From Nakamurella deserti (GTDB lineage Bacteria > Actinomycetota > Actinomycetes > Mycobacteriales > Nakamurellaceae), in assembly GCF_003260015.1 (NCBI RefSeq), contig NZ_QCXS01000003.1, forward strand, positions 206,315-238,314: DNA of 32,000 nucleotides, written 5' to 3'. The notes under the pieces are model-generated. The model saw nothing but the letters and a program-made list of their open reading frames with translations, had not been told where the DNA came from and made no database searches. The position numbers and the translations under genes are program-made. Positions 2,257 through 29,056 of the stretch are shown here, piece after piece (position 1 is the stretch's first letter; each line of letters opens with the position of its first letter).

Positions 2257-2293
2257 CCGGCCGACAGCTCCGCGCTGAGGCTCCGCGGCTCGG

Positions 2294-2367
2294 TGCCCCC
2301 GGTCGGACTCGAACCGACACTGCGACGATTTTAAGTCGCCTTCCTCTGCCGATTGGGATACGGGGGC
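2294..2367 (-). tRNA. tRNA with anticodon UAA (nominally Leu, reads UUA/UUG) but a class I (short variable loop) architecture
   Basis: Hand-folded cloverleaf on the minus strand: GCCCCCG-TA-TCCC-AATCGGCAG-AGGA-A-GGCGA-CTTAAAA-TCGTC-GCAGT-GTCGG-TTCGAGT-CCGAC-CGGGGGC-A. It has a 7-bp acceptor stem, a 5-bp anticodon stem (one G.T), a 5-bp T stem with a TTCGAGT loop, G18G19 in the D loop, U33, A36A37A38 and discriminator A73. CCA is not fully encoded (ACCG). Confidence 0.75.
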
Positions 2368-7723: not shown

Positions 7724-10423
7724 TCAGCCGACCGTCACCGGGTCCGGCCGCCGCCCGAGGGTGAGCGGGGTGGGTCCGGCGGGGGCGGCGCCGCCGGTGC
7801 CGCAGCCCGCGGTGGCCGGGGCGTTCTCCAGCCCGGCGAACGACCGGGCCAGCGCGGCCCGTTCGGGGTCGGCGCGGCCGTAGGTGGTGGTGCGTTGGAC
7901 GGCGGGCCGGCCGATCGGGGCGCAGATGTCCTCGAGTTGCGGCACGGTCAGGTACGAGCCGAACTGGGAACCGGCCATCCGCGAGATGGTCTCCTCCATC
8001 AGGGTGCCGCCCAGGTCGTTGACGCCGCCCTGCAGCATCACCCGGGTGCCCTCGGGGCCGAGCTTGACCCACGACGTCTGGATGTTGTCGATCGAGCCGT
8101 GCAGCATCAGCCGGGCCACGGCGTGCACCGCGCGGCTCTGGTCGAACGTCGCCCCGGCCCGGGCCAGCCCGGCGAGGTAGATCGGCGCGTTGGTGTGGAT
8201 GAACGGCAACGGCACGAACTCGGTGAAACCGCCGGTCCGGGACTGGATCTCCCGCAGCAGCGCGAGGTGGGCCACCCAGTGCCGCGGGGTGTCCACGTGC
8301 CCGTACATCATCGTCGACGAGCTGCGGATACCGAGCTCGTGCGCGGTGGTGACGACCTCGATCCAGGCCGCGGTCGGCAGCTTGCCCTTGGTCAGCACCC
8401 ACCGCACCTCGTCGTCGAGGATCTCCGCCGCCGTACCCGGGATCGACCCCAGCCCGGAGGCCTTCGCCTCGGCCAGCCACTCCCGGATGGACAGGTCGGC
8501 GCGGGTCGCCCCGTTGACCACCTCCATCGGCGAGAACGCGTGCACGTGCATGTCCGGGACCCGCGCACGGATCGCCCGCAGCAGGTCGAAGTAGGCGGTG
8601 CCGGGCAGGTCCGGGTGGATACCGCCCTGCATGCACACCTCGGTCGCCCCGAGGTCCCAGGCGACCGCGGCCCGCTGGGCCACCTCGTCCACCGACAGGG
8701 TGTAGGCGTCGGCGTCCCCGCGGCGCTGCGCGAAGGCACAGAACCGGCAGCCGGTGTAACAGACGTTGGTGAAGTTGATGTTCCGGTTCACCACGTAGCT
8801 GACGTCGGGGCCGTTGACGTCGGCCCGGACGGCGTCGGCCAGCGCGCACACCGCGTCCAGGTCGGCGCCGGTGGCGGTGATCAGCGCCAGCGCCTGCGAA
8901 TCGGAGAGCCGGGAGGGGTTGTCCGCGGCCACCCGGAGGGCGGCGGCCACCTCCGAGCCCAGCCGCTCCGGCATCGACGAGTCACTGGCGGCCAACCGTT
9001 CCCGCAGCGCGTCCCAGTCGCCGTACACGTCGGAGAAGTCCGACCGGCGGTCCTCGGAACGCCCGGTGTGGTCGATGTCGGTGTGCAGGTCGGTGCGGCC
9101 GCTGGACTCGATGCCCGACTCCGGCTCCTGCCACGGCAGGCCCTGCGGAATGACATCGGCGCGGGCCAGCCCGGTCTCGGGGTCGGCGAGCGCGTCCACG
9201 TGCGCTCGCAACCGCGGATCCAGCCACGGCTCCCCCGCGGTCACGTACTCGGGGTAGATCGTCAGCCGTTCCTTCAACTCGAAACCGGCGGCCGCGGTAC
9301 GCGCCGCCAGATCGTCGATCTGTGGCCACGGCCGCTCCGGGTTCACGTGGTCCGGGGTCAGCGGCGACACCCCACCCCAGTCGTCGATGCCCGCTCCGAT
9401 CACCCGGGTGAAGACCTCGTCGCCCTCGCCGATGAGGTTCGGCGGTGCCTGGATCCGCACCGACGGACCGAGCACCAGCCGAGCCACCGCGACAGTGGCG
9501 ATCAGCTCGTCGATCTCGGCGTCGGGCATCCGGGCCATCGCGGTGTCGGGCTTGGCCCGGAAGTTCTGGACGATGACCTCCTGGACGCCCCGGTAGGCGC
9601 GGGCGACCTGCCGGATCGCAAAGATCGACTCGACCCGGTCCGACAGCGTCTCACCGATCCCGATGAGGATGCCGGTGGTGAACGGCACCGACGAGCGGCC
9701 CGCGTCCTCCAGCACCCGCAGCCGCACCGCCGGGTCCTTGTCCGGCGAACCGTAGTGGGCGCCGGACTTCTCGGTGAACAGGGCACGGGACGTGGTCTCC
9801 AGCATCATCCCCATCGACGGGGCGACCGGCTTCAACCGGGCCAGCTCCTGCCAGCTCATCACCCCCGGGTTGAGGTGCGGCAGCATGCCGGTGGCCTCCA
9901 GCACCCGGATCGACATGGCCCGGACGTAGTCCAGGGTGGTGGCGTACCCGGCCTCCTCCAGCCAGTCCGCCGCCGCCGTCCACCGCTCCTCCGGCCGGTC
10001 CCCGAGGGTGAACAGCACCTCCTTGCAGCCCATCGCCCGGCCGGCCTCGGCGATCGCCACCACCTCGTCCGGCGACAGGAACGGCGCCGGCACCCGACCG
10101 GGGGTGGTCACGAACGTGCAGTAGTGGCAGCGGTCCCGGCACAGCCGCGTCAGCGGGATGAACACCTTCTTCGAGTAGGTGATCACCCCCGGGCGGCCGG
10201 CGGCCAGCAGCCCGGAGTCACGCACCCGCGCGGCCGAGGCAGAGAGTGCGTCCAGGTCCGAGCCGCGGGCCTGCAGCAGGATCGACGCCTCGGTCTGGTC
10301 GAGGGTGGCGCCGTCGGCGGCCCGGCGCAGCGCGCGCCGCAGCGACGACGGCGACGCGGCCGGGGCGTCGCCCAGCCGGACCGGGCCGTACCTCGGGTCC
10401 AGACCCAGATCGAGATCGGTCAT
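7724..10423 (-). CDS. fbiC: FO synthase (7,8-didemethyl-8-hydroxy-5-deazariboflavin synthase), fused CofG/CofH
   Basis: 899 aa with two radical-SAM CxxxCxxC sites ([10 protein letters not shown] and [10 protein letters not shown]). Colinear with mycobacterial FbiC. ATG 10423..10421 shares one base with the fgd stop (cTGATG). The 1236-aa track ORF is an upstream in-frame extension. Confidence 0.95.
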
Positions 10424-11427
10424 CAGTAGCCCAGGTTCCGCAGTCGGGGCAGCACCTCGGCGCCGTACAGCTTCAGGAACTTCGCCTGGTCCGGCCCGGG
10501 GGCGTGGAACACCAGGTGCTTGAACCCGAGATCGAGGTAGTGCCGGATCTTCTCGACGTGCTCGTCCGGGTCGGTGGACACGATCCAGCGGGACGCGGCC
10601 CGCTCCACCGGCAACGCGTCGGCCAGCCGCTGCATCTCGATCGGATCCTCCACGCCGGTCTTCTCCTCCGGCGACAACGCCAGCGCACCCCAGTACGTGG
10701 TGTCGTTCAGTGCGGCGTCGCGGTCGTGGTCGAAGCTGACCTTCATCTCCATCAGCAGGTCCATGTCGTCCAGGGTCCGGTCGACCTTCGCCGCCCCCTC
10801 CGCCAACGCCGGCAGCAGGGTGTCGCGGTAGAGCGAGTCCGCCTTGCCCGACGTGGTGATGAACCCGTCCGCCACGCGGCCGGCCAGCCGGGTCGCCGCC
10901 GGACCGGACGCACCGACGTACAGCGGCACCGGCGTCTCCGGGCGGTCGTAGATGGTCGCCTTGTCCGTCGAGTAGAACGTGCCCTCGAAGTCGACCCGCT
11001 CGTCGGCCCACAACGCCTTGATCAGCGTGATGGCCTCCTTCATCCGGGCGAACCGCTCCTTGCCGTCCGGCCACTCGAGACCCAACGGCACCTCGTTGAG
11101 CGACTCCCCCGACCCCACTCCCAGGATGACCCGGCCCGGGTAAAGCATCCCCAACGTCGCGAACGCCTGGGCGATCACCGCCGGGTGGTAGCGGAACGTC
11201 GGGGTCAGCACCGAGGTCCCGATCACGATGCGTTCCGTCCGGGCCCCCAAGGCACCCAGCCACGGCAACGCCGCCGGCGCATGCCCACCGTCGTGCCGCC
11301 ACGGCTGCAGATGATCGGACACGAACACCGAATCGAAGCCCTGCTCCTCGGCCAGAACGCCGTACCCCAACAGCTCCGACGGCCCGAACTGCTCGGCAGA
11401 AGCTTTGTATCCCAGACGGATCGGCAC
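10423..11427 (-). CDS. fgd: F420-dependent glucose-6-phosphate dehydrogenase
   Basis: Near-colinear similarity, from memory, to M. tuberculosis Fgd1 (Rv0407): [76 protein letters not shown] 11427 with GAAGGTG 5-6 nt upstream. Confidence 0.92.
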
Positions 11428-11572: not shown

Positions 11573-12799
11573 TCAGTTGCCGCCGGCGTTGAGCGTCACC
11601 TCGATCGGCGCGAAGTTCTCGCCCGTGGTGTCCAGGCCCATCTCCTCCAGCGCCGCCAGCGCCTTCTCGGTGTACTCGTTCGTGTAGGCCTCCGCGTCGG
11701 GCGCCTTGGTCAGCACGGTGTCGCCGTCGGCGTTCTTGGTGCCCTGCGCGACCTCGACGGTCTGCTTCCAGGCCTCCTCGTCGACCATCCCGATGCCGTC
11801 GGTGGACGGCCAGATGAGCTGGTTGACCTCGTTCATCTGCCACAGCTGGTGCGACGCCCCCAGCTTCGACCCGGCGGCGACCACGATGTCGCGGCACTCC
11901 TCCGGGTTCTCGGCGCAGAAGATCCAACCCTGGTAGCTGGCGGTCAGGAACTTGACCGTCGTCTCCTGGTAGGCCGCGTCGTCGGCGAGCCGCGCGGTGT
12001 CGGCCCAGATCGCGTCCTGGAGCATCGCGGTGCCCTCGGTGTTCCAGTCGATGACGTTGAAGTCGTCGGCGGTGTACAGCTCACCGGTGTCGGGGTTCTC
12101 GGCCTCGAGCACCTGTGCGTACTCGTTGTAGATCATCGCCTGGGCGGCGTCGATGTCGCCGCTGAGCAGCCCGTTCATGTCGAACTGCTGCTGGGTCAGC
12201 TGGACGTCGGCGGCCGGGTCGAGGCCCGCCTTGGTCATCCCGGCGAACAGCTCGAACTCGTTGCCGTAGCCCCAGTTCCCGACCACCTTGTCGCGCAGGT
12301 CGGCCGCGCCGGTGATGTTCTTGTCCTTGAAGGACACCTGGCGGGTACCCGACTTCTGGAACACCTGACCGACGTCGGTGATGGCCGCACCCTGCTCCCG
12401 GGACTGCAGCGCCTTGGGCACCCAGGCGATGGCGTAGTCGGCCTGGCCACCGGCGAGCACGGTCTGCGGGACGATGTCCGCGCCACCCTGCAGGATCTCC
12501 ACGTTCAGGCCCTGCGCCTCGTAGAAGCCCTGGTCGAGGGCGGCGATGTACCCGGCGAACTGGGCCTGGGTGAACCACTGCAGCTGCAGCTTGACGTCGG
12601 TCGTGGCGCCGGAGCCGCCGCCGGCGGTGTCCGGGGCGCTGGTCTGCCCGGAGGCGTTCATCGTCCCCGAGACGGCGGGGCTGGTGCTGGTCGCGGTGGC
12701 GGCCGGGGTACCGGCCGGATCGCTGCTGCCACAGGCGGCGAGTACGAACAGACCGGCGGCGGCGGTGGCGGCGCCGATCGTCTTTCCGAGGCGGTGCAT
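11573..12799 (-). CDS. ABC transporter substrate-binding lipoprotein, NMT1/THI5-like (NitT/TauT family)
   Basis: ATG 12799 with AGGAGA 5 nt upstream. Signal peptide plus lipobox (LFVLAAC|GSS) and a Ser/Thr/Ala linker. The mature domain (LQLQWFTQAQFAGYIAALDQGFYEAQGLNVEI...) resembles the NMT1/ThiY/SsuA fold. The 926-aa track ORF is an upstream extension. Confidence 0.85.
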   Translation of the reverse strand: MHRLGKTIGAATAAAGLFVLAACGSSDPAGTPAATATSTSPAVSGTMNASGQTSAPDTAGGGSGATTDVKLQLQWFTQAQFAGYIAALDQGFYEAQGLNVEILQGGADIVPQTVLAGGQADYAIAWVPKALQSREQGAAITDVGQVFQKSGTRQVSFKDKNITGAADLRDKVVGNWGYGNEFELFAGMTKAGLDPAADVQLTQQQFDMNGLLSGDIDAAQAMIYNEYAQVLEAENPDTGELYTADDFNVIDWNTEGTAMLQDAIWADTARLADDAAYQETTVKFLTASYQGWIFCAENPEECRDIVVAAGSKLGASHQLWQMNEVNQLIWPSTDGIGMVDEEAWKQTVEVAQGTKNADGDTVLTKAPDAEAYTNEYTEKALAALEEMGLDTTGENFAPIEVTLNAGGN

Positions 12800-12891
12800 C
12801 GGTATCTCCTGACGGGTGGGGGCGAGGGACGGTGCGGGGTGTGACGGGCGGTGCGGCGGTGCGGGGCGGTGCGGGGGGTGCCGGGGGCGGG

Positions 12892-13659
12892 TCAGCGGAC
12901 GTCGACCCGGCCGCGGGTGGCGAGCCGCTCGACGAGCAGCGCGACGACGTAGAACAGCAGCCCGAGCAGGACGGCGCCGAGCACCGACGCCCATGCGCGC
13001 GGGTAGTTGGTGGCGGCGACGGCGGACGTGATCCGCGCACCGAGCCCGTTCTGCAGGCCACCGAAGTACTCGGTGACGACGGCGGCGATGACCGACAGCG
13101 ACGCCGCGATCCGCAGCCCGGTGAAGAAGTACGGCAGGGCGCCGGGGATCCGGACCGTGCGCAGGACGGCCCAGCCGGACGCGGCGTAGCTGGCCATCAG
13201 TTCGGCGTGCACCGGACTGATCCGTTTCAGACCGCGGACGACGTTCATGAAGACCGGCACGAAGGCGCTGATGCCGACGACGAGCTGCCGGGGCAGCGCC
13301 GAGGTCGACGGGTAGAGGATGTTCAGCAGCGGCGCCAGCGCGACGATCGGGATGGTGGCCAGCGCGGCGACCAGCGGGGTGAACATCTCGTCGAGCACCC
13401 GCAGGCGCACCACAACCGCGGCGAACAGCAGCGCCGCGAGGGTCCCGCCGACCAGGCCGACGAGGGCGTTGAGCCCGGTGTTGCGGGCGGCCGTGGCGAT
13501 CCGCGGGGCGTCGTTGACGAAGGCCGTCCAGATCGCGCCCGGCGACGGCAGCACGTAGGCCTGGATGTTCCCGACCTGCACCAGGGCCTGCCAGGCGAGC
13601 AGGAACAGCACGCCGAAGACGACCGGTGGCGCGATCGACCGGGTCGCGGAGCGCAGCAT
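12892..13659 (-). CDS. ABC transporter permease (NitT/TauT family)
   Basis: 255 aa, 6 predicted TM helices, BPD-type permease layout. Start is adjacent to the ATPase stop (TAGATG). Confidence 0.9.
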   Translation of the reverse strand: MLRSATRSIAPPVVFGVLFLLAWQALVQVGNIQAYVLPSPGAIWTAFVNDAPRIATAARNTGLNALVGLVGGTLAALLFAAVVVRLRVLDEMFTPLVAALATIPIVALAPLLNILYPSTSALPRQLVVGISAFVPVFMNVVRGLKRISPVHAELMASYAASGWAVLRTVRIPGALPYFFTGLRIAASLSVIAAVVTEYFGGLQNGLGARITSAVAATNYPRAWASVLGAVLLGLLFYVVALLVERLATRGRVDVR

Positions 13660-14520
13660 CTACAACGCTCCCGCGGCACCGGGGTGCGCGCCGTCGGACA
13701 TCTCGCGTCCGCGCAGCGCCTCCCGGACCTGGGTGATCGCGGTGAAGAAGGCCGGCGACTCGCGCACCTGGGTGCCGCTGGCCATCGAGCCGTCGGCGTG
13801 CTGTCGCAGCCCCACCGGCACGACGGTGGCGATCCGGCCCGGTCGCGGGGACATCACCACGACCCGGTCGGACAGGAACACGGCCTCCGGGATGGAGTGG
13901 GTGACGAACACGACCGCGGCCGACGTCTCGGCGGCGATCCGGACCAGCTCGTCCTGCATGCGCTCGCGGGTCATCTCGTCCAGCGCCCCGAACGGCTCGT
14001 CCATCAGCAGCAGGCCGGGACGCTCCGCCAACGCGCGGGCGATCGCGACGCGCTGCTGCATGCCGCCGGACAGCTGGGGCGGGCGGTGCTTGGCGAAGTC
14101 GGCCAGTCCGACCATCTCCAGCAGCTCCAGGCCGCGGGCGCGGCGCTCCCGGGACCCGACGCCGTGCAGCTCCAGCGGCAGCTCGACGTTGGCCAGCACG
14201 GTGCGCCAGTCGAGCAGGCCCGCCTGCTGGAAGGCGAAGCCGTACTTGCGGCCCAGCCGGGCCTCGCGGGCCGTCTCGCCGCTGACCCGGACGGTGCCGG
14301 TGGTGGCCGGCAGCAGATCCGCGATGATCCGCAGCAGCGTCGACTTGCCGCAACCGGACGGGCCGATCAGCGAGATGAACTCGCCGGCGGGGATGGTCAG
14401 GTCGATGTCGGTCAGCGCGACGACCTGGTTCCGGCCCTTGCCGAAGGTCTTGGTGACCCCGCTGACCTCGACGGCGGCGGCGGCGACCGTCTGCGGTACC
14501 GCTCCGAAAGGTGTGCTCAT
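13660..14520 (-). CDS. ABC transporter ATP-binding protein
   Basis: Walker A GPSGCGKST, signature LSGGMQQR, Walker B LLLMDEPF. ATG 14520 overlaps the upstream permease stop as ATGA. The 618-aa track ORF is an extension. Confidence 0.93.
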   Translation of the reverse strand: MSTPFGAVPQTVAAAAVEVSGVTKTFGKGRNQVVALTDIDLTIPAGEFISLIGPSGCGKSTLLRIIADLLPATTGTVRVSGETAREARLGRKYGFAFQQAGLLDWRTVLANVELPLELHGVGSRERRARGLELLEMVGLADFAKHRPPQLSGGMQQRVAIARALAERPGLLLMDEPFGALDEMTRERMQDELVRIAAETSAAVVFVTHSIPEAVFLSDRVVVMSPRPGRIATVVPVGLRQHADGSMASGTQVRESPAFFTAITQVREALRGREMSDGAHPGAAGAL

Positions 14521-15449
14521 GAGGCGTTCCCCGTCCGTTGGTAGCGGCGCAGGGCCAGGTCGAACAGTGTGACGATGGCGGCGGTGACGAGGCCGAGCGC
14601 GGCCGCCCCGATCACCGCGGTGTACACCCGCGACGGGTCGCCGGTGGCGCCCTGCGAGTAGCTGATGATGAGGCGGCCGATGCCGCCTTCGAGGCCGATG
14701 GAGATCTCCCCGACGACGGTGCCGACGACCGCACCGGCCGCCGCCAACCGCAGTGCCGGCACCAGGAACGGCACCGAGGCCGGCAGCTTCAGCCGCGTCA
14801 GCGTCTGCCACCAGCCGGCGTTGACCGAGCGGAAGTACTCGGTCGGCACGGCACCCGGGGACTTGAGGCCGCGGGCCATGCCGACGGCGACCGGGAAGAA
14901 GGCGAGGTAGCCGGCGATCAGCGACACCGACATCCAGCGCTGCCACTCCAACGGCCCGATCGACAGGCCGTTGCCCCACCCGGTGACGAGTGGGGCCAGG
15001 GCGATCAGCGGGACGGTCTGGCTGAGCACGATCCACGGCAGCAGCGCCCGTTCGAGCACCTGCAGCCGGTCCATCACCAGTGCGAGCCCGAGCCCGACGA
15101 CGACCCCGATGGCGAAGCCGACCCCGGCCCAGAGCAGCGAGTTGCCGGCCGCCGACAGTACCGACTCGAACACCGTCGGCGCCGTGCTGCCGCGGACGAT
15201 GGTCGCGCCGCCGACCTCCTGGGCGCCGAACGCGTCGATCACCGAGGTGACGTGCGGCATCGCGGCATTGCCGGCGCGCGCCCAGATGGGCACCCCGAAC
15301 AGCGTTCCTCCCCGGGCCGGGCCGAGGGACTTGTAGAGCTCCCAGAGGCCGATCAGGACGGCCAGGCCCACGAGCGCCAGCACCGCCTTGCGGGCGTACC
15401 GCAGCGCGGTCATCGGCCGGGCGCCCGGGCCGGTCGTGGAGCCGACCAC
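14517..15449 (-). CDS. ABC transporter permease (second membrane subunit)
   Basis: 310 aa, multiple TM helices, permease-like. Start is GTG 15449 or ATG 15413 (MTALRYARKAV...); neither has a clear SD. Confidence 0.85.
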   Translation of the reverse strand: MVGSTTGPGARPMTALRYARKAVLALVGLAVLIGLWELYKSLGPARGGTLFGVPIWARAGNAAMPHVTSVIDAFGAQEVGGATIVRGSTAPTVFESVLSAAGNSLLWAGVGFAIGVVVGLGLALVMDRLQVLERALLPWIVLSQTVPLIALAPLVTGWGNGLSIGPLEWQRWMSVSLIAGYLAFFPVAVGMARGLKSPGAVPTEYFRSVNAGWWQTLTRLKLPASVPFLVPALRLAAAGAVVGTVVGEISIGLEGGIGRLIISYSQGATGDPSRVYTAVIGAAALGLVTAAIVTLFDLALRRYQRTGNAS

Positions 15450-15651
15450 AACGGGCCGCCGAGGAGCGGGCCACGGTCGACCGGGGCCACCGTCTCCGCA
15501 CCCGGGCCGGTCCCATCGGCGCGGCCGCCGTCCCCCCGGGACCAGGCTCCGGTCGCGCCGTCCAGCGGGCCGGACCCCGCCGCCGTGGTCCGGCCGTCCC
15601 GGTGCGCGCCGCCGAAGCGGGCGCGGAAGACGGCGGTGCTCAGGCCGGGGA

Positions 15652-16683
15652 TCACGTCTTGGCCGCCTTGCGCGTGTTGACGGCCGGGATGACGTGGTCG
15701 CCGTAGGCCGCCAGGGTCTCGGATTTCGCGTCGTGCTGCAGGTACAGCGCGAACTGATCCACCCCCAGTTCGCACAGCTGCGCCAGCCGGTCGACCTGGG
15801 CCTCGACCGGCCCGAGCAGGCAGAAGCGGTCGATGATCTCGTCGGGGACGAAGTTCGTGTGGTCGTTGCCGGCCTTGCCGTGCGAGTTGTAGTCGTAGCC
15901 CTGCCGGCCGGCGATGTAGTCGCTCAGCGCGGCCGGGACCGCGGCACCCTGCGAGCCGTAGCGGGCGACGATGTCGGCGACGTGGTTGCCGACCATCCCG
16001 CCGAACCAGCGGCACTGGTTGCGGGCGTGCTGCAGTCCCGCCTCGGACCCGTCGGTGACGTAGGCGGGTGCGGCGACGCAGATCTTCACCGCGGCCGGGT
16101 CCCGGCCGGCGTCCGCGGCCGCCCTGCGGACGGCGGCGATCGACCAGGCGGTGATGTCGAGGTCGGCGAGCTGCAGGATGAACCCGTCGCCGATCTCCCC
16201 GGTCAGCTGCAGCGCCTTCGGGCCGTACGCGGCGACCCACACGGGCAGCTTCGACCCGACGCTCCACGGGAACTGCAGGGTGTTGCCGTTGTACTCGACG
16301 GCCTCACTGTTGGCCAGACCCCGGATCACGCCGATGCTCTCGCGCAGGGTGGCCAGCGTGGTCGGCCGGCCGTTGGTCACCCGCACCGCGGAGTCACCGC
16401 GTCCGATGCCGCAGATCGTCCGGTTGCCGAACATCTCGTTCAACGTGGCGAACAGCGATGCGGTGACCGTCCAGTCCCGGGTGGCCGGGTTGGTGACCAT
16501 CGGACCGACCGTCACCTTGCGGGTGTTGGCCAGGATCTGCGAGTAGACGACGTACGGCTCCTGCCACAGCAGGTGCGAGTCGAACGTCCACACGTGGCTG
16601 AACCCGAGAAGCTCGGCCTGACGGGCGAACTCGACGATCCGCGCCGCCGGCGGGTCGTTCTGCAGGACTACTCCGAAATCCAC
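15652..16683 (-). CDS. LLM-class F420-dependent oxidoreductase, Mer-like (methylene-H4MPT reductase-like) subfamily
   Basis: 343 aa. GPMVTNPATRDWTVTASLFATLNEMFGNRTICGIGRGDSA closely parallels the Mer core (GPGVTNP...ITASAIATLDEL..GR..LGIG.GD). TIM-barrel luciferase-like layout. GTG 16683 with GAGGAG 5 nt upstream. Substrate unknown. Confidence 0.85.
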   Translation of the reverse strand: MDFGVVLQNDPPAARIVEFARQAELLGFSHVWTFDSHLLWQEPYVVYSQILANTRKVTVGPMVTNPATRDWTVTASLFATLNEMFGNRTICGIGRGDSAVRVTNGRPTTLATLRESIGVIRGLANSEAVEYNGNTLQFPWSVGSKLPVWVAAYGPKALQLTGEIGDGFILQLADLDITAWSIAAVRRAAADAGRDPAAVKICVAAPAYVTDGSEAGLQHARNQCRWFGGMVGNHVADIVARYGSQGAAVPAALSDYIAGRQGYDYNSHGKAGNDHTNFVPDEIIDRFCLLGPVEAQVDRLAQLCELGVDQFALYLQHDAKSETLAAYGDHVIPAVNTRKAAKT

Positions 16684-16859
16684 AGTTGCTCCTCGGTCGA
16701 GGTCGTTCGCCGGAGCCGGAGATCACCACGGTCGACGGGCGGGACCGGGGAACAGCGAAGGAGCCGATCCACGGTCGTGTTCGTGCCGACGGCGCAGCCG
16801 GCGCGCATGCTGGCCGCGGCGCCGACGGACACATCTCGGTCGAGGAGCACTGACGGCCC

Positions 16860-18269
16860 CTAGACGAGGTTCTGCGAGAGGGAGCGCTTCACGAACCGGC
16901 CGTGGCCCTTGTGGCCGACGTAGCCGGTCTCGTCCTTGACAACGGTGCCGCGGGAGAGCACCACGTCGACGTGACCGTCGATCTCGTAGCCCTCCCAGGC
17001 CGAGTAGTCCATGTTCATGTGGTGGGTCTTGCCGAGGCCGATGCTGGTGTGGCCGTTCGGGTCGTAGACGACGATGTCGGCGTCGGCCCCGGGGGCGATG
17101 ACGCCCTTGCGCCCGTAGAGCCCGAACATCCGGGCCGGGGTGGTGCAGCAGACGTCGACCCACTTCTCGAGGCTGATCCGGCCGTCCTTGACGCCCTGGT
17201 ACAGCAGGTCCATCCGGTGCTCGACGGAGCCGATCCCGTTGGGGATCTTCGCGAAGTTGCCGATCCCCAGCTCCTTCTGGTCCTTCATGCAGAACGGGCA
17301 GTGGTCGGTGGACACCGTGGTCACGTCCCCGGTCCGGATGTAGCGCCACAGGTCGTCCTGGTGACCCTCCGCCCGGGAGCGCAGCGGGGTCGAACACACC
17401 CACTTCGCCCCCTCGAAGCCGGGTGCGCCGAGGTTGTCCTCCAGCGAGAGGTACAGGTACTGCGGGCACGTCTCGCCGAAGACGTTCTGCCCGGCGTTAC
17501 GGGCCTCGGCGATCCGGGCCAGCGCCTGCTTGGCCGAGACGTGCACGACATACAGTGGCGCGCCGGTGATGTCGGCGAGCATGACGGCCCGGTGGGTGGC
17601 TTCCTGCTCGGTCTGCCACGGCCGGGTGACACCGTGGTAGTAGGGCGAGGTCTCGCCGCGCGCGAGCGCCTGCTGGACGAGGACGTCGATGGCCGAACCG
17701 TTCTCGGCGTGCATCATGATGAGACTGCCGTTGCCGGCGGCTTTCTGCATGGCCTGCAGGATCTGCCCGTCGGACGACAGGAACACCCCGGGATAGGCCA
17801 TGAACAGCTTGAAGCTGGTGATGCCCTCGTCGATGAGCTCGTCCATCGCGGCCAGCGAGGCGTCGTTCACCTCGCCGATGATCTGGTGGAAGGCGTAGTC
17901 GACGGCGCAGTTGCCGGCGGCCTTGTCGTGCCACAGCTGGACCTGGTCCTGGACGCGTTGCCCGTGGGCCTGCACGACGAAGTCGACGATGGTGGTGGTA
18001 CCACCCCACGCCGCGGCGCGGGTGCCGGTCTCGAAGGTGTCGGAGGCCTCGGTCCCGCCGAACGGCATCTGCATGTGGGTGTGGGCGTCGATGCCACCGG
18101 GGATGACGTACTTCCCGGCCGCGTCGATGACGGTGTCCGCGGTGATCGGGCCCAGGGCGGACGTGCCCGGCGCCAGCACGGCGGCGATGGTCTCGCCGTC
18201 GACCAGCACGTCGGCACGCACCGAGCCGGTGGCACTCACGACGGTGCCGTTGGTGATCAGGGTGGTCAT
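16860..18269 (-). CDS. hydA: dihydropyrimidinase / D-hydantoinase
   Basis: 469 aa cyclic amidohydrolase: GGIDAHTHMQMPFGGT (HxH metal site), SFKLFMAY (carboxylated Lys), MMHAENG, VVHVS, STDHCPF. Confidence 0.93.
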   Translation of the reverse strand: MTTLITNGTVVSATGSVRADVLVDGETIAAVLAPGTSALGPITADTVIDAAGKYVIPGGIDAHTHMQMPFGGTEASDTFETGTRAAAWGGTTTIVDFVVQAHGQRVQDQVQLWHDKAAGNCAVDYAFHQIIGEVNDASLAAMDELIDEGITSFKLFMAYPGVFLSSDGQILQAMQKAAGNGSLIMMHAENGSAIDVLVQQALARGETSPYYHGVTRPWQTEQEATHRAVMLADITGAPLYVVHVSAKQALARIAEARNAGQNVFGETCPQYLYLSLEDNLGAPGFEGAKWVCSTPLRSRAEGHQDDLWRYIRTGDVTTVSTDHCPFCMKDQKELGIGNFAKIPNGIGSVEHRMDLLYQGVKDGRISLEKWVDVCCTTPARMFGLYGRKGVIAPGADADIVVYDPNGHTSIGLGKTHHMNMDYSAWEGYEIDGHVDVVLSRGTVVKDETGYVGHKGHGRFVKRSLSQNLV

Positions 18270-18378
18270 GACTCACTCACTCCATCTCGGGGACGCCGGG
18301 TCCTGGCGGTTCCTCCCGGACGGCGGGAGGCACGCGCCGGGATCCGGCTGGGGAGGGCTCGGTCGGGGTGGAGCGCGG

Positions 18379-19227
18379 TCAGGGGGTGGTGGTCTTCGTG
18401 TACGACTCGGGGCGGCGGTCGCGGTAGAACTGCCAGTCGTTGCGGGCCTGGGTGATCTCGTCCAGGTCGAGGTCGCGGATGACGATCTCCTCCCGGTCCT
18501 GCGAGGCCACCTCCCCGACGTACACCCCGCGTGGCCCGACGAAGTAGGACGAGCCGTAGAAGGTGACGGCGTCGTCGCCGAACTCCTCGGTCTCGGTGCC
18601 GATGCGGTTGTTGGCGGCGATGAAGTACTGGTTGTTGGCGGCGGCGGCCGGCTGCTCGATCTCCCAGAGCCGGTTGGACAGGCCCGGTTTCGTCGCCGAC
18701 GGGTTGAACACGATCTGCGCGTTGTTCAGGCCGAGCTCACGCCAGCCCTCCGGGAAGTGCCGGTCGTAGCAGATGTAGACGCCGACCCGGCCGACCGCGG
18801 TCGGGAACACCGGGTAGCCCAGGTTCCCCGGGCGGAAGTAGAACTTCTCCCAGAACTGCGGCAGGTTGGGGATGTGGTGCTTGCGGTAGGAGCCGAGCAC
18901 GGTGCCGTCGGCGTCGATGACCACCGCGGTGTTGTAGTACTCCCCCTCGTTGGCCACCTCGTAGATGGGCAGCACGATGACGAGGTGCAGTTCCTTCGCG
19001 AGGGCGGCGAACCGCTGGACGGTGGGACCGTCGACCGGCTCGGTGTAGGCGTAGTACTTCTGGTCGGTCCGGATGCCGAAGTAGGGACCGTAGAACAATT
19101 CCTGGAATCCGATGATCTGCACGCCCTGCGCGGCGGCGTCGCGGGCCAGCTGCTCGTGTCGGTCGATCATCGATTCCTTGTCACCGGTCCAGGCGACCTG
19201 GGTGATGGCGGCTCGTACGACGGTCAT
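18379..19227 (-). CDS. beta-ureidopropionase-type carbon-nitrogen hydrolase (nitrilase superfamily)
   Basis: Glu-Lys-Cys triad contexts FQELF, YRKHHIP and ICYDRHFPE. IVFNPSAT...LWEIE..AAAANN...NRIGTE...FYGSSYF parallels eukaryote-type beta-ureidopropionase. ATG 19227 with GAAGGAG 5 nt upstream; the 304-aa track ORF starts too early. Confidence 0.85.
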   Translation of the reverse strand: MTVVRAAITQVAWTGDKESMIDRHEQLARDAAAQGVQIIGFQELFYGPYFGIRTDQKYYAYTEPVDGPTVQRFAALAKELHLVIVLPIYEVANEGEYYNTAVVIDADGTVLGSYRKHHIPNLPQFWEKFYFRPGNLGYPVFPTAVGRVGVYICYDRHFPEGWRELGLNNAQIVFNPSATKPGLSNRLWEIEQPAAAANNQYFIAANNRIGTETEEFGDDAVTFYGSSYFVGPRGVYVGEVASQDREEIVIRDLDLDEITQARNDWQFYRDRRPESYTKTTTP

Positions 19228-19584
19228 CGGAACTCCTTCATCGGACGCACTGCGGTACGGGGGAACCACGGTGGCACTCACGGGTGACGGCACTGCCTCG
19301 ACGCGCGCACCTCGGTCCCTCGCGTCTCCCGGCCACCGGTCCGACCGGATCGAGCGGCGGGAGACAGTGATCGTGAGGGATCAAGATTGCCTGACTATAA
19401 ACACCGGACCCCGAATGTTTCCGGCGGATGACCGCCGGACGCCGTCAACCCTGCACCGTCTACGCAGCGTGCCGGGGACGGCACCCGCGCCCACCGGTTG
19501 GCGTCCGCTGGACGAAATCGACGGCACGAAAACGTCCGCCCGCCCCCGTGTCGCGGGTGCATCCGCCGTCGTAGGGTCGGGTGC

Positions 19585-21033
19585 ATGTCGACCAACCTCG
19601 CAGATCCCACCGGTGCCGATCTCACCGACGAACCGGCCGTCTCCAGCGCCGACGCCCCGCCGGCGGAGGACCATCAGGCGGCGACCGAGACGGTGACGAG
19701 CGAGGAGGTCCGGACCGCCGACCGCGCGCACGTCTTCTACCCGTGGGCCGCCCAGGGCGTGCTCGACCCGCTGCCCATCGAGCGGGCCCTCGGCTCGTAC
19801 ATGTGGGACTACACCGGCAAGCGCTACCTGGACTTCTCGTCCCAGCTGGTCAACGTCAACATCGGACATCAGCACCCGAAGCTGGTCGCCGCCATCCAGG
19901 AGCAGGCCGGCCGGCTGTGCACGATCGGCCCGGTGGTCGCCAACGACGTCCGCAGCGAGGCGGCCCGGCTCATCGCCGAGATCGCCCCCGGCCACCTGAA
20001 CAAGGTCTACTTCACCACCGGTGGCGCCGAGTCCGTCGAGAACGCCATCCGGATGGCCCGAATCCACACCGGCCGGAACAAGATCTTCGCCGCGTACCGC
20101 AGCTACCACGGCGGCACGTCGGGCGCGGTGACGTTGACCGGCGAACCGCGGCGGTGGGCGTCGGAGCCGGGAATCCCCGGGGTGGTGCACTTCTGGGGTC
20201 CGTACCTGTACCGGTCGGTGTTCTACGCGACCACGCCCGAGGAGGAGTGCACCCGGGCCCTGCAGCACCTGCGCGACCAGATCATCATGGAGGGCGCCCA
20301 CACGGTGGCGGCCGTGATCATGGAATCCGTCGTCGGGACCAACGGCATCCTCGTACCACCGGACGGCTACCTGGCCGGCGTCCGCGCGCTGTGCGACGAG
20401 TTCGGCATCGTCTACATCGCCGACGAGGTGATGGCCGGCTTCGGCCGCTGCGGCGAGTGGCTCGCGGTGAACCACTGGGACGTCACCCCCGACCTCGTCT
20501 GCTTCGCCAAGGGCGTCAACTCCGGATACGTGCCGCTGGGTGGCGTCATCATGAGCGACGCGATCGCGGCCACTTTCGACAACCGCGTCTATCCCGGCGG
20601 TCTCACCTACGCCGGCCATCCGCTGGCCTGCGCGTCCGCGGTCGCCTCGATCGGCATCTTCCGCGAGGAGGGCATCGTGGAGAACGCCCGCCGGATCGGC
20701 GAGGACGTCATCGGCCCCGGGCTGCGCGCGCTGGCCGAGAAGCACCCGTCGATCGGCGAGGTCCGCGGCCTGGGTGTCTTCTGGGCGGTGGAGCTGGTCC
20801 GGGACCGGGCGACCCGGGAGCCGCTGGTGCCGTTCAACGCCAGCGGCCCGGACGCCGCCCCGATGACGGAGTTCGTGAAAGCCTGCAAGGCGCACGGGCT
20901 CTGGCCGTTCACCCACTTCAACCGCACACACGTGGTGCCGCCCTGCACGGTGACCGACGCCGAGGTGGAAGAAGGTCTGGCCATCCTGGACGAGACCCTC
21001 GCGGTCGCCGACCGGTACTACACCGGCAGCTGA
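19585..21033 (+). CDS. class-III (omega) aminotransferase, probable beta-alanine/beta-aminoisobutyrate:pyruvate/2-oxoglutarate transaminase
   Basis: FTTGGAESVENAIRMAR, IADEVMAGFGRCGEW and FAKGVNSGYVPLGG (PLP-binding Lys). ATG 19585. A TAGGGT -10-like hexamer at 19572..19577 ends 8 nt before the ATG, so the mRNA may be leaderless. Confidence 0.9.
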   Translation: MSTNLADPTGADLTDEPAVSSADAPPAEDHQAATETVTSEEVRTADRAHVFYPWAAQGVLDPLPIERALGSYMWDYTGKRYLDFSSQLVNVNIGHQHPKLVAAIQEQAGRLCTIGPVVANDVRSEAARLIAEIAPGHLNKVYFTTGGAESVENAIRMARIHTGRNKIFAAYRSYHGGTSGAVTLTGEPRRWASEPGIPGVVHFWGPYLYRSVFYATTPEEECTRALQHLRDQIIMEGAHTVAAVIMESVVGTNGILVPPDGYLAGVRALCDEFGIVYIADEVMAGFGRCGEWLAVNHWDVTPDLVCFAKGVNSGYVPLGGVIMSDAIAATFDNRVYPGGLTYAGHPLACASAVASIGIFREEGIVENARRIGEDVIGPGLRALAEKHPSIGEVRGLGVFWAVELVRDRATREPLVPFNASGPDAAPMTEFVKACKAHGLWPFTHFNRTHVVPPCTVTDAEVEEGLAILDETLAVADRYYTGS

Positions 21034-21175: not shown

Positions 21176-22342
21176 TCAGGTGGCAGGCTCCGCGGCGGGC
21201 TGGAACGCCCTGTCGTCGACCCGGACGATCTGACCGGCGTCGGGCAGGCCCAGCTCGGCGCCGAGCGCCCAGGCGGAGGCGTACAACTCACCCTTGTGGA
21301 TGAGCAGCCCGGCGGGCAGCGGCACCTGGGCGTAGGTGCGGGTGCCGTCCGGAGCCACCTTGACGATCTGGCCGACCGTGGCCGGATCGAAGCCGGGCGG
21401 CGGCGCGCTCGGGTCCGCCGGCGCACCCTCGGTCAACTCGGAGACGTACACGTTGCCCTCGGCGTCCACCTCCACACCGGCGGGTCCGGTGAACCCGTCG
21501 AGCACCCGGACGGGCTCCTGGTGGTTCCAGTCGTAGACGAACACCCGGCCCGCCCCGGGCACCAGCCCGCCGAGCGCCGACACGTACACGTCGTCGTGAT
21601 TGCCGTACGCGATCCCGGTCGGCACCGGGTCGCAGCCCAGGACGGCGGGGTCGTTGTTCGGGATCTCCGCACACGGACCCTCGGTGATCAGCGGCAGCGT
21701 GCGCCACAACTGCAGATCACCGGCCGCGGTGCGGAACAGGATGTCGTTGCCGCCCGCGTCGGCGATCAGCGCACTGCCGTCCCGGTGGGCGCGGACGAAG
21801 TACGGATTGGACAACGCCTCCAGGGGCAGGCCCTCCGGTCCGAACTGGGGTTGGCCGTCGGGGTTGTTGTCCCGCTCGAACTGACCGAGGTCCTCGAGCA
21901 CCTCGGGGGTCCCGCCGCCGGAGGAACCCAGCAGCACCGAGATGCCGAACGGCGTCTCGGGCGCTTCGCTGCCGGGACCGGGTTCGCCGACGGCCACCAG
22001 GATCTGACCGTGCACCTTGTCCACGCCCTGCACGAGGCCGGCCCCGAGGTCGGTGAGCAACGGCGTCACCTCGCCCGACCGGACGTCGACCCGGGAGACC
22101 CGGCCGGCGTCGGCCTCGGCCACGAAGATCGTGTGGCCCCGGCCCTTGTCGGAGATCTGCCGCGGCCCGTCGAGACCCGAGGCGACGACGGTGATCCCGC
22201 TGGGGTCGCCACCGCCGTGCCCGCCGTGCCCGCCACCACCGTGCCCGCCACGCCCGTCGCCGGCCTGCGCGACCGGTGACACCAGGGCGGCGGCGAGCAG
22301 CCCCGCCGCCGACCCGACGATCCATCTGTTTCGCATCCGCAC
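21176..22342 (-). CDS. secreted beta-propeller protein (ScyD/ScyE- or NHL-repeat-like), with a His/Gly-rich N-terminal tract
   Basis: Signal peptide (IVGSAAGLLAAALVSPVAQA), then GDGRGGHGGGGHGGHGGGD. Repeated ..G.VYVSE../..ADAGGNDILF.. strands look propeller-like. GTG 22342 has GGAG 5 nt upstream. The family call is from memory of PGAP ScyD/ScyE family proteins and is not verified. Confidence 0.55.
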   Translation of the reverse strand: MRMRNRWIVGSAAGLLAAALVSPVAQAGDGRGGHGGGGHGGHGGGDPSGITVVASGLDGPRQISDKGRGHTIFVAEADAGRVSRVDVRSGEVTPLLTDLGAGLVQGVDKVHGQILVAVGEPGPGSEAPETPFGISVLLGSSGGGTPEVLEDLGQFERDNNPDGQPQFGPEGLPLEALSNPYFVRAHRDGSALIADAGGNDILFRTAAGDLQLWRTLPLITEGPCAEIPNNDPAVLGCDPVPTGIAYGNHDDVYVSALGGLVPGAGRVFVYDWNHQEPVRVLDGFTGPAGVEVDAEGNVYVSELTEGAPADPSAPPPGFDPATVGQIVKVAPDGTRTYAQVPLPAGLLIHKGELYASAWALGAELGLPDAGQIVRVDDRAFQPAAEPAT

Positions 22343-22873: not shown

Positions 22874-24157
22874 TCAGCGGTCGACGGTGCCGGCCACCCG
22901 GGCGGCGCGCACGGAGGCCACCGCGTCCGCGACGACCGCCTCCACCTGATCGGCCTCGATCAGGAACCCGTCGTGACCGAACTCCGAGTGCATGGTGACG
23001 ACCGGGCGGGTGGTGGGGGCGGCCGCGAGCTCCAACCCCAGGTGCGGGGGGAAGAGCCGGTCGGAGTCGACGACGGCCACGGTGAGTTCGGCGGTGATGC
23101 GTTGCAGTGCGGCGGTCAGACCGCCGCGACCACGGCCCAGGTCGTGGGAGTTCATCGCCTCGGTGAGGCACAGGTAGGAGTTCGGGTCGAACCGGCGACC
23201 GAGCTTGGCCCCGTGGTACTCGAGGTAGGACTGCACGGCGTAACGCCCGCCGTCGGCGGTGCTCTCCCCCGGCTGGTCCTGACGACCGAACCGGGTGTTG
23301 AGCTCGTGCTCGCTGCGGTAGGTCGCGTGCGCGATCTGCCGCGCCACCGCCATCCCGGCCAACGGCCATTCGCCGTCGTAGTAGTCACCGCCGTGGAAGT
23401 GCGGATCCGCCCGGATGGCCGACAGCTGCGGCGTGGTCCAGCCGATCTGGTCGGCTGAGGAGTAACCGCAGGTGGCCAGGGCGACGGCCGCCTGCAACCG
23501 GCCGGGCTGGCCGACGGCCCACTCCATCACGCGCATCCCGCCCATGGAGCCGCCGATGACGGCCAGGAAGGTCCGGATGCCGAGCGCGTCGGCCAGTGCG
23601 GCCTCCGCGGCGACCTGGTCGCGGATGGTGAGGGTGGGGAACCGGGAGCCGTAGGGACGCCCGTCCGCCGCGATGGACGACGGGCCGGTGGTGCCCTGGC
23701 AGCCGCCGAGCACGTTCGGCGCGACGACGAACAGCTCGTCGGTGTCCAGCACCGCGCCGGGGCCGATCAGACCGTCCCACCACCCGGGCGTCGGCTGACC
23801 CGGTCCGGCCGGGCCGACCACGTGCGCGTCACCGGTGAGCGCGTGCAGCACCAGCACCGCGTTGCCGCCTGCCTCGTCGAGCGTGCCCCAGGTCTCGTAC
23901 GCCATCCGGACGTCCGGCAGCACGGCGCCGTTCTCCAGCACGAGGTCGCCGATGTCGGCGAAGCGGCGGCCCGCCACCGGATCGCCTTCCCGCCAGATCT
24001 CCGGACGCGGCGTCACTTCGACGCGGGACAGCGGCGAGACGGTGACGTCGGGGCGCCGCCCGGGAACGGCGGACAGCACCGCCCCCGCCCGGACGCCGGT
24101 GGAGCCGGCTCCCGGGTCGGGCGCGGTGCGATCGGCGTAGGCCATGGAGATCAGCAT
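22874..24157 (-). CDS. metX: homoserine O-acetyltransferase
   Basis: Colinear with mycobacterial MetX (Rv3341): VLHALTGD.H..GPAGPGQPTPGWWDG, nucleophile elbow GGSMGG, GRYAVQSYLE, EAMNSHDLGRGRGG, GHDGFL. Start is ATG 24157 or ATG 24145; neither has an SD. Confidence 0.92.
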   Translation of the reverse strand: MLISMAYADRTAPDPGAGSTGVRAGAVLSAVPGRRPDVTVSPLSRVEVTPRPEIWREGDPVAGRRFADIGDLVLENGAVLPDVRMAYETWGTLDEAGGNAVLVLHALTGDAHVVGPAGPGQPTPGWWDGLIGPGAVLDTDELFVVAPNVLGGCQGTTGPSSIAADGRPYGSRFPTLTIRDQVAAEAALADALGIRTFLAVIGGSMGGMRVMEWAVGQPGRLQAAVALATCGYSSADQIGWTTPQLSAIRADPHFHGGDYYDGEWPLAGMAVARQIAHATYRSEHELNTRFGRQDQPGESTADGGRYAVQSYLEYHGAKLGRRFDPNSYLCLTEAMNSHDLGRGRGGLTAALQRITAELTVAVVDSDRLFPPHLGLELAAAPTTRPVVTMHSEFGHDGFLIEADQVEAVVADAVASVRAARVAGTVDR

Positions 24158-24197: not shown

Positions 24198-25601
24198 TCA
24201 GACGCCCGCGGGGGCCACTTCCGGTTCGACGGGCTCGACGGCGGCGTCCGCCGGCTCGGCCACGGCGGCCTCGTTCGCGGCGGCCGCCGCGGCGAAGCCC
24301 TTCTCCAGATCGGCCAGGATGTCGTCGATGTGCTCGATACCGACCGCGAGCCGGATCAGGCCCGGGGTGACGCCGGTGCTGGCCTGCTCCTCGGGGGTGA
24401 GCTGCGAGTGGGTCGTGGACGCCGGGTGGATGACCAGCGACCGCACGTCACCGATGTTGGCGAGGTTGGAGAAGATCTCGAGTCCGTCGGCGAACGCCTC
24501 TCCCGCGGCCGCGCCGCCCTTCACCTCGAACGCGACGATGGCGCCGCCACCGTTCGGGGAGTACTTCCGCTGCAGCGCATGCCATTTCGACGACGCGAGG
24601 GCCGGGTAGTTCACCGAGGCGACCTCCGCCCGACCCTCGAGGAACTCCGCGACCGCGGTCGCGTTGGCGACGTGGCGCTCCAGCCGCAGCGACAACGTCT
24701 CCAGCCCCTGGTTGAGCAGGAAGGCGTTGAACGGTGTGGTGGCCGGGCCGAGGTCGCGCAGCAACTGCAGGCGGGCCTTGAAGATGAACGCGACGTTGAC
24801 GCCGAACAACCCGTCCGGGCCCAGGTCGACGCCCCAGGTGAGGTTGTTGTAGCTCGGGTCCGGGGTGTTGAAGATGCTGAACTTCTCGGGATCCGCGGTC
24901 CAGTCGAAGTTCCCGGAGTCGACGATGACACCGCCGATGGCGACGCCGTGCCCGCCCAGGTACTTGGTGGTCGAGTGCACCACGATGTCGGCGCCGTGCT
25001 CCAGCGGCCGGATGAGATACGGGGTGGCGACGGTGTTGTCGACGATCAGCGGCACTCCGTTGGCGTGCGCGACGCCGGAGACGCCTTCGAAGTCGAGGAT
25101 GTCCAGTTGCGGGTTGGAGATGGACTCGGCGTAGAAGGCCTTGGTGTTGGGCAGCACCGCCGCCTGCCAGGACTCGAGGTCGTCCGGGTTCTCGACGAAG
25201 CTGACCGTGATGCCGAACTTCGGCAGCGTGTAGTGCAGCAGGTTGTAGGTGCCGCCGTACAGGCGCGGGGAGGCGACGATGTGGTCGCCGGCGTTGGCCA
25301 CGGTGAGCAGCGCGATCGACTCGGCGGCCTGCCCGGAGGCGACCAGCAGCGCACCGACGCCGCCCTCGAGCGCGGCGATCTTCTGCTCGACGGCGTCGTG
25401 GGTGGGGTTGTGGATGCGGGTGTAGATGTTGCCCAGCTCCTGCAGGGCGAACAGCTTCGCACCGTGCGCGGAGGAGTCGAAGGCGAAGGAGGTGGTCTGG
25501 TAGATCGGCAGCGCGCGGGCGTGGGTGGTGGCGTCGGGCGCCTGGCCGGCGTGGATCTGGAGGGTCTCGAACTTCCAGTCGTTGCTCACGGAGATGCTCA
25601 T
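24198..25601 (-). CDS. metY: O-acetylhomoserine sulfhydrylase (aminocarboxypropyltransferase), PLP-dependent
   Basis: FETLQIHAGQ, TTSF.F, IYTRI.NPT and STTKYLGGHG (PLP Lys). About 25 aa Ala/Glu/Pro-rich C-terminal tail. ATG 25601. Confidence 0.93.
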   Translation of the reverse strand: MSISVSNDWKFETLQIHAGQAPDATTHARALPIYQTTSFAFDSSAHGAKLFALQELGNIYTRIHNPTHDAVEQKIAALEGGVGALLVASGQAAESIALLTVANAGDHIVASPRLYGGTYNLLHYTLPKFGITVSFVENPDDLESWQAAVLPNTKAFYAESISNPQLDILDFEGVSGVAHANGVPLIVDNTVATPYLIRPLEHGADIVVHSTTKYLGGHGVAIGGVIVDSGNFDWTADPEKFSIFNTPDPSYNNLTWGVDLGPDGLFGVNVAFIFKARLQLLRDLGPATTPFNAFLLNQGLETLSLRLERHVANATAVAEFLEGRAEVASVNYPALASSKWHALQRKYSPNGGGAIVAFEVKGGAAAGEAFADGLEIFSNLANIGDVRSLVIHPASTTHSQLTPEEQASTGVTPGLIRLAVGIEHIDDILADLEKGFAAAAAANEAAVAEPADAAVEPVEPEVAPAGV

Positions 25602-25823: not shown

Positions 25824-25939
25824 GGACCGCGCTTGTGTCCCGCACTTCGCGGGACACCGGGTCAATCACCCGGGGCACCCCACCGCGTGTGGAGGGTTGC
25901 CGCCCAGCGAGCCGGGGCTTGACGCTGGAACTCATGACC
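25824..25939 (-). promoter_or_regulatory. SAM-IV riboswitch (Rfam RF00634 type) in the metY-metX leader
   Basis: The minus strand reads GGTCATGAGTTCCAGCGTCAAGCCCCGGCTCGCTGGGCGGCAACCCTCCACACGCGGTGGGGTGCCCCGGGTGATTGACCCGGTGTCCCGCGAAGTGCGGGACACAAGCGCGGTCC. This matches, block for block, the mycobacterial SAM-IV sequence as I remember it (GGUCAUGAGUGCCAGCGUCAAGCCCCGGCUUGCUGGCCGGCAACCCUCCAACCGCGGUGGGGUGCCCCGGGUGAUGACC...hairpin...AAGCGCGGGUC). The genomic context (metY/metX) is the canonical one. Confidence 0.85.
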
Positions 25940-29005: not shown

Positions 29006-29056
29006 GGTGTCAGATCCTTTCGGGCTGGTGAGTGGTCGTCGTCGGAACTTCGACCG

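Follow-up and report, generated by a model that had tools for sequence, protein, structure and literature searches.

A 32,000-nucleotide stretch of the Nakamurella deserti genome (contig NZ_QCXS01000003.1, positions 206,315 to 238,314; the whole stretch is referred to as the window) carries a gene cluster for reductive pyrimidine (Pyd) catabolism, within which lies a gene for a luciferase-like oxidoreductase resembling Mer. This oxidoreductase is probably an F420H2-dependent uracil/thymine reductase, a non-homologous stand-in for the dihydropyrimidine dehydrogenase PydA that would carry out step 1 of the pathway. Across the loci compared, separate genes account for import, ring opening, decarbamoylation, transamination and semialdehyde oxidation. 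Uracil or thymine reduction is the sole step lacking a gene, and the sole conserved gene lacking a step is that of the Mer-like F420 enzyme, which is why the oxidoreductase is proposed for step 1. The pathway itself is the known Pyd pathway, and what would be new is the proposed first enzyme, which is not a homologue of PydA/PreTA. The same interpretation was given in an original prediction made from the sequence of the stretch, and it is supported in that it agrees with every computational test available.

Linkage of the oxidoreductase gene to pyd genes

The original prediction held that PydA/PreTA was missing from the window, and this was confirmed, as Escherichia coli PreA and PreT gave no match in the 32 kb (tblastn, E ≤ 1e-3) and no DHO_dh-type domain was revealed by Pfam in those other open reading frames of the window that were scanned. 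PreA was likewise without a match in the window and 84 related loci (1.31 Mb; tblastn), a search that covered gene neighbourhoods, and neither PreA nor PreT was found in the later loci L082–L095. A single distant match to PreT was detected in the 1.31 Mb, about 6 kb from pydC in locus L021. With 27% identity and in one locus only, it was judged to be a GltD-type relative and not a conserved partner.

Species-representative genomes were scanned with the single oxidoreductase protein, giving at least 565 confirmed relatives, and the best 80 loci, from diverse Actinomycetota, were kept and their neighbourhoods compared by tblastn with the proteins of the window. Where more than 3.5 kb of upstream DNA was available (60 loci), pydB adjoins the oxidoreductase gene on the same strand in all except one, L035, in which the 3' end of pydB sits at the contig edge. 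In 35 loci the two genes are separated by no more than 124 nt, and most of the remaining loci have a gap of about 1.5 kb holding a CoA-acylating methylmalonate-semialdehyde dehydrogenase (MMSDH; TIGR01722, 709 bits), an enzyme whose gene belongs to the cluster in 42 of 85 loci. A pydC gene lies beside pydB in 58 loci, the genes of the ATP-binding cassette (ABC) importer are found in 36–48 (the NMT1 binding protein in 36), the aminotransferase gene in 27 of 81, and a MocR-type regulator in about 10. Median identities across loci are 75% for the oxidoreductase, 73% for PydB and 66% for PydC, so that the oxidoreductase is conserved at least as strongly as the other cluster enzymes.

The link between the oxidoreductase and the pyd genes holds across seven gene orders and down to 40% oxidoreductase identity, and is also kept where an M20-type amidase replaces the nitrilase type. 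It spans three phyla, being present in Actinomycetota, in Chloroflexota and on one Leisingera plasmid. For example, a clade at 44% identity has a dihydropyrimidinase, an amidase of the M20 hydantoinase/carbamoylase family (not the nitrilase type), MMSDH, an aminotransferase and an NMT1-type ABC system. The gene order is MMSDH, CN_hydrolase, oxidoreductase and dihydropyrimidinase in an Anaerolineaceae genome, and dihydropyrimidinase, CN_hydrolase and oxidoreductase in a Thermoleophilia genome. Streptomyces rimosus and another Streptomyces carry pydC and an aminotransferase-like gene, then an intervening stretch, then pydB and the oxidoreductase gene, the last two being 17 nt apart in S. rimosus. 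Shared descent cannot explain the association, since it persists through different gene orders and partner proteins. Co-occurrence of this luciferase-like subfamily with pydB and pydC had been suggested as a check on the original prediction; it proved near-universal (59/60 loci), surviving both rearrangement and the non-orthologous replacement of PydC.

The main alternative is that a canonical PydA or PreTA elsewhere in the genome performs step 1, and that the oxidoreductase is an F420H2-dependent malonate or methylmalonate semialdehyde reductase, an analogue of PydE, RutE or YdfG yielding 3-hydroxypropionate or 3-hydroxyisobutyrate. The window and its closest relatives have no clustered MMSDH, the PreA/PreT search covered neighbourhoods, and the solved F420-dependent relatives with a luciferase fold include alcohol, sugar and hydroxy-acid dehydrogenases (Adf, Fgd and Rv0132c), all of which would suit such an enzyme. 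However, a CoA-acylating MMSDH is already present in the same cluster in the 42 loci mentioned above, and the closest ties of the oxidoreductase gene are with pydB (3–124 nt) and the importer genes rather than with the aminotransferase gene. In addition, the nearest relatives of the protein are Mer reductases and not members of the dehydrogenase branch, and in Paracoccus alcaliphilus the NMT1 importer comes directly after the oxidoreductase gene, fitting action on an imported compound. A semialdehyde reductase is, on balance, unlikely.

Family, fold and active site

The oxidoreductase matches TIGR03842 with 568.8 bits over residues 2–335 of 343 (curated cut-off, 295.45) and PF00296 with 226.7 bits; its start codon is GTG, with GAGGAG upstream. 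TIGR03842 has no functional name in NCBIfam (June 2026), where it is a hypothetical equivalog. Relatives with 70–94% identity span Actinomycetes and Acidimicrobiia, and at least three further clades, at 40–45% identity, still score above the TIGR03842 cut-off. Among solved structures (PDB), Mer reductases are the best match by sequence (1e-30), followed by other F420 enzymes. An AlphaFold2 model of the protein (pLDDT 83, pTM 0.86) was compared with known structures using Foldseek, and Mer-F420 complexes were again best (TM 0.76–0.79), with Fgd and Adf also at the top and luciferases and SfnG at lower rank. The protein had originally been described as Mer-like and as belonging to an F420-class family, and both descriptions stand, the first in sequence as well as in fold. 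It is predicted to use coenzyme F420, as suggested indirectly by the neighbouring fbiC and fgd genes, by the place of family members at the end of cofGHDCE-npdG operons and by the conserved V-T-N-P motif.

Twenty NCBIfam families match the oxidoreductase at E ≤ 1e-5, of which 16 are F420-class models, and no RutA model is among the twenty; for this reason a RutA-like function was rejected. RutA also has a luciferase-like fold, acts on uracil and thymine and performs the first catabolic step, but it does so by FMN- and O2-dependent ring cleavage and is followed by RutB–G, whereas the cluster in the window has the hydrolytic Pyd enzymes. The luciferase-like superfamily holds RutA and many FMN monooxygenases, and the lower-ranking Foldseek matches include luciferases and SfnG, so an FMN- and O2-dependent pyrimidine monooxygenase working in the manner of RutA was considered. 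It fits poorly and is very improbable, as every top match by sequence and by fold is an F420 enzyme, the gene shares an operon with those for F420 biosynthesis and Fno in the Alphaproteobacteria described below, and Rut-type cleavage would not give the saturated ring that dihydropyrimidinase needs.

The roles of individual residues have been described for jMer, including the catalytic Glu6 at the end of β1, whose exchange for glutamine (E6Q) leaves 0.4% of kcat (PMC11094777). Three features of Mer, its closest solved relative, are shared by the oxidoreductase. These are the conserved G-P-x-V-T-N-P segment, which in Mer is the cis-peptide backstop under the deazaflavin; D97, corresponding to the Mer aspartate that touches the pyrimidine ring of the pterin and invariant in every clade; and a conserved carboxamide position (Q171). 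With V-T-N-P, D97 and Q171 conserved, the site for F420 seems intact and that for the substrate still seems suited to a pyrimidinone ring. At position 178 of jMer, the residue is Gln178 in PMC11094777 and Asn in PDB chain 8qpm_A as aligned, a carboxamide either way and matching Q171. The oxidoreductase differs from Mer in that Glu6 of jMer aligns with Val6, a non-acidic residue being found there in all clades, and in that it scores 115.4 bits against the Mer model TIGR03555, under the equivalog cut-off of 348.7. A Mer function was rejected on the basis of this score and the loss of the catalytic glutamate, and, judged from the alignment, Mer-specific chemistry is gone from the protein. The hosts of this family are actinobacteria, Chloroflexota and proteobacteria, and its gene context is pyrimidine catabolism, which also sets it apart from Mer.

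F420 supply and the proposed route

In Alphaproteobacteria, a cofG-cofH-cofD-cofC-cofE-npdG operon ends with the TIGR03842 gene. This is seen on a plasmid of Leisingera caerulea (NZ_CP081074.1, about 155.7–171.2 kb; loci L092/L093), where there are two divergent operons, one with pntA, pntB and genes for an aminotransferase, an M20 amidase, HydA (hydA) and an NCS1 nucleobase permease, and the other with cofG, cofH, cofD, cofC, cofE, npdG and the TIGR03842 gene. Ten Leisingera plasmids carry a TIGR03842 gene. In Paracoccus alcaliphilus, the same F420 operon again closes with npdG and the oxidoreductase gene, and genes for an ABC system that includes an NMT1 binding protein follow it. Two further alphaproteobacterial-type contigs have family members that adjoin ureide or amide genes instead of Pyd genes. 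One (L088) shows a 446-aa luciferase-like protein, an isochorismatase, Hydantoinase_B and an amidase beside the family member, and the other (L090) has npdG directly upstream of it and Hydantoinase_A 6 kb away.

In the window, fgd and fbiC are directly downstream of the Pyd cluster and, judging from these two genes, the organism makes F420 and can reduce it. The juxtaposition (7724–11427) is lineage-specific, as it was found only in the closest relatives (L001 and L002).

The proposed route begins with the NMT1-type ABC system, which would import the base. F420 would be reduced with glucose-6-phosphate by Fgd or, in the proteobacterial relatives, with NADPH by Fno; the family assignments of both enzymes are clear, and their coupling to the oxidoreductase is suggested. 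On the oxidoreductase, the hydride at C5 of F420H2 would then move to the C6 position of the pyrimidine, while an active-site acid would protonate its C5, converting uracil or thymine to 5,6-dihydrouracil or dihydrothymine by the chemistry that FMNH2 performs in PydA. Candidates for this proton donor are the invariant residues D35/S36/H37, D97, H234, Y263/D264/Y265 and H268. Dihydropyrimidinase, a firm family assignment, would open the ring, and the nitrilase-fold amidase would, from its fold and context, free β-alanine or β-aminoisobutyrate together with NH3 and CO2. The aminotransferase would give malonate or methylmalonate semialdehyde, to be oxidized in many relatives by the clustered CoA-acylating MMSDH, again securely assigned to its family. 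We infer which substrate is reduced, which way the reaction runs, which group donates the proton and what the transporter of the cluster binds. NAD(P)H is the physiological donor of PydA. The potential of F420 (-340 mV) is comparable to that of NAD(P)H (PMC6279831).

F420 enzymes can in principle transfer hydride in either direction, and donor and acceptor have similar potentials, so the oxidoreductase might run oxidatively, converting dihydropyrimidine and F420 to pyrimidine and F420H2 for salvage or for F420 reduction. Such an enzyme would vie with the co-encoded dihydropyrimidinase for one substrate, and the pairing with Fno, PntAB and Fgd indicates the use of F420H2 and not its production. 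The oxidative direction fits poorly and can be given very little weight.

The remaining assignments of the original prediction were largely upheld. The dihydropyrimidinase exceeds the TIGR02033 cut-off (Table 1), and the importer does have a binding protein of the NMT1/THI5 fold, a lipoprotein with a weak match to the ThiY formylaminopyrimidine-binding protein (3ix1), which is proposed to bind a pyrimidine base. The third enzyme is a CN_hydrolase as predicted, but its description as a 'eukaryote-type' β-ureidopropionase is only approximate, since its nearest solved relatives are plant N-carbamoylputrescine amidase (194 bits) and then animal β-ureidopropionase (165 bits). Among NCBIfam models it scores highest with aguB, where its 247.7 bits fall below the cut-off of 410. 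Context favours β-ureidopropionase, which it probably is. The omega-aminotransferase is class III and divergent, as had been stated, with the correction that the nearest solved relative is taurine:2-oxoglutarate aminotransferase (6jix, 386 bits); β-alanine and β-aminoisobutyrate are its probable substrates.

The known enzyme for step 1, PydA/PreT-PreA (EC 1.3.1.1/1.3.1.2), would have in common with the oxidoreductase the reaction proposed (hydride to C6, proton to C5) and the position upstream of PydB and PydC. PreA, however, is a dihydroorotate dehydrogenase-like FMN barrel with 4Fe-4S clusters that is fed by an FAD/NAD(P)H subunit, PreT, and has no homology to the oxidoreductase, which is a luciferase-like barrel without an Fe-S motif and is predicted to rely on diffusible F420H2. 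Full-text literature searches retrieved no paper that ties F420 to dihydropyrimidinase or dihydropyrimidine dehydrogenase in catabolism, and searches for TIGR03842 retrieved no description of such an enzyme. In mureidomycin biosynthesis, genetic evidence implicates a putative F420/FMN oxidoreductase in reduction of the uracil C5=C6 bond, with no in vitro activity obtained (PMC10714638). That protein (SSGG-03002/NpsU, the uracil-ring reductase of mureidomycin and napsamycin) serves the biosynthesis of a uridyl-peptide antibiotic, not the catabolism of a free base, and is likened here by description, not by sequence (PMC10714638). In uric-acid clusters of Chloroflexota, a PF00296 F420 enzyme has been proposed to act in reductive dearomatization in place of the PydA homologue UacX or YgfK (PMC12507026). 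This putative 'yanthine reductase' is also a bioinformatic proposal of an F420 luciferase-family enzyme reducing a uracil-like ring, but the ring is purine-derived and the pathway another, and the likeness is again one of description (PMC12507026).

The yanthine proposal is one of several points that would suit a different substrate for the cluster, which the oxidoreductase would then reduce. Such a substrate might be a modified pyrimidine or some cyclic ureide other than uracil and thymine, for example a hydantoin, a uracil substituted at C5 or a compound resembling yanthine. The only solved relatives of the NMT1 binding protein bind other pyrimidines, the best score of the amidase is to N-carbamoylputrescine amidase, and dihydropyrimidinases are well established to hydrolyse hydantoins too. 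Set against these, the omega-aminotransferase and MMSDH match exactly the β-alanine and β-aminoisobutyrate that arise from uracil and thymine, the dihydropyrimidinase is above its equivalog cut-off, and the Leisingera island includes an NCS1 nucleobase permease. We regard a substrate of this kind as improbable, and uracil and thymine as the better candidates.

Some observations count against assigning uracil/thymine reduction to the oxidoreductase. Characterized F420 reductases of the luciferase fold are known to act on C=N or C=O bonds, and F420-dependent reduction of C=C bonds is better known from the split-barrel flavin/deazaflavin oxidoreductase (FDOR) fold. The invariant residues D35-S36-H37, G96-D97-S98 and H268 lie on loops where the confidence of the model is low. 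Several proteobacterial family members have no Pyd gene within 8–12 kb, and in the window the oxidoreductase gene is flanked by gaps of 176 nt (to pydB) and 238 nt (to the permease gene), so that its co-transcription with its neighbours here is not certain.

If uracil/thymine reduction by the oxidoreductase is correct, the committed step of reductive pyrimidine degradation would have a third solution, not homologous to the others, in which one small barrel protein and a diffusible deazaflavin take the place of an FAD/FMN enzyme with multiple 4Fe-4S clusters. It would also give a function to a large, highly conserved and unnamed family, with close relatives in at least 565 species-representative genomes, and correct reconstructions that score such organisms as having no pyrimidine catabolism. 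By our own extrapolation, the family could be an unrecognized route of 5-fluorouracil reduction. The role of F420 in Proteobacteria and Chloroflexi was considered an open question in a 2021 review (PMC8498797), and the present proposal bears on why these bacteria make the cofactor. A wider reading, which we would place slightly short of even chances, is that TIGR03842 may be a widespread deazaflavin-dependent dihydropyrimidine dehydrogenase of Actinomycetota, Chloroflexota and Alphaproteobacteria, and that the cofGHDCE-npdG operon of Rhodobacterales may chiefly serve the TIGR03842 enzyme, the two together forming a two-component reductase that passes electrons from NADPH through F420 to uracil. 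On this wider reading, F420 would gain its first defined physiological role in Proteobacteria, and (fluoro)pyrimidines could be reduced by a route free of Fe-S clusters. The assignment of step 1 to the oxidoreductase can be tested directly, because culturable hosts (Streptomyces rimosus, Leisingera and Paracoccus) carry the cluster.

Gene content of the window

The window is about 71% G+C, and genes were therefore called by third-position GC bias and named with NCBIfam and Pfam. The features of the cluster and of F420 supply are listed in Table 1. On the minus strand, the order of transcription is CN_hydrolase, dihydropyrimidinase, oxidoreductase, permease, ABC ATPase, permease and NMT1 binding protein, and the class-III aminotransferase gene is divergent from these.

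Table 1. Coordinates of the pyrimidine-catabolism cluster and the adjoining F420 genes in the 32-kb window.
Feature	Position	Strand	Evidence
FbiC (fused CofG/CofH), deazaflavin FO synthase	7724..10423	-	NF006687 1484 bits (cut-off 1018)
fgd (F420 supply)	10423..11427	-	TIGR03554 470.7 bits (cut-off 420)
NMT1/THI5-family lipoprotein substrate-binding protein	11573..12799	-	PF09084 107 bits; lipoprotein signal LFVLAAC
ABC permease 1	12892..13659	-	PF00528; in 42 loci
ABC ATPase	13660..14520	-	PF00005; in 48 loci
ABC permease 2	14517..15413	-	PF00528; kept downstream of the oxidoreductase in 47 loci
TIGR03842-family luciferase-like (Mer-like) F420-class oxidoreductase	15652..16683	-	TIGR03842 568.8 bits (cut-off 295); PF00296
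Dihydropyrimidinase (PydB), step 2	16860..18269	-	TIGR02033 552 bits (cut-off 393)
Nitrilase-fold N-carbamoyl amidase, probable β-ureidopropionase (PydC), step 3	18379..19227	-	PF00795 211 bits
Class-III omega-aminotransferase, probable β-alanine/β-aminoisobutyrate aminotransferase, step 4	19585..21033	+	PF00202; PRK06062 755 bits

Between pydB and the oxidoreductase gene, the closest relatives have a spacer of about 17–20 nt, and that of the window (16700–16860) is longer by about 157 nt. The extra DNA is G+C-rich, is predicted to fold strongly and has a 15-nt inverted repeat at its flanks. No further copy of it was found in the window or the loci, making it unique and not a repeat, and scans of the intergenic regions for promoters, terminators and repeats gave nothing above chance.

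Adjoining the aminotransferase gene is one for a secreted ScyD/ScyE-family protein (21176–22336, minus strand; NF033206, 178.8 bits) with a Gly/His-rich N-terminal stretch; in a 97%-identical relative (L001), a beta-lactamase-family gene replaces it at the same place. Beyond it, a SAM-IV riboswitch (25824–25939, minus strand; 109 bits, gathering score 38) lies upstream of genes for a pyridoxal-phosphate enzyme of Cys/Met metabolism (24198–25601) and an alpha/beta hydrolase (22874–24157), which are probably a metY-metX pair. The window also includes a tRNA-Leu(TAA) gene (2292–2367, minus strand) and a pair of genes for the small and large subunits of ribonucleotide reductase, with an ATP-cone (27854–31915, minus strand).

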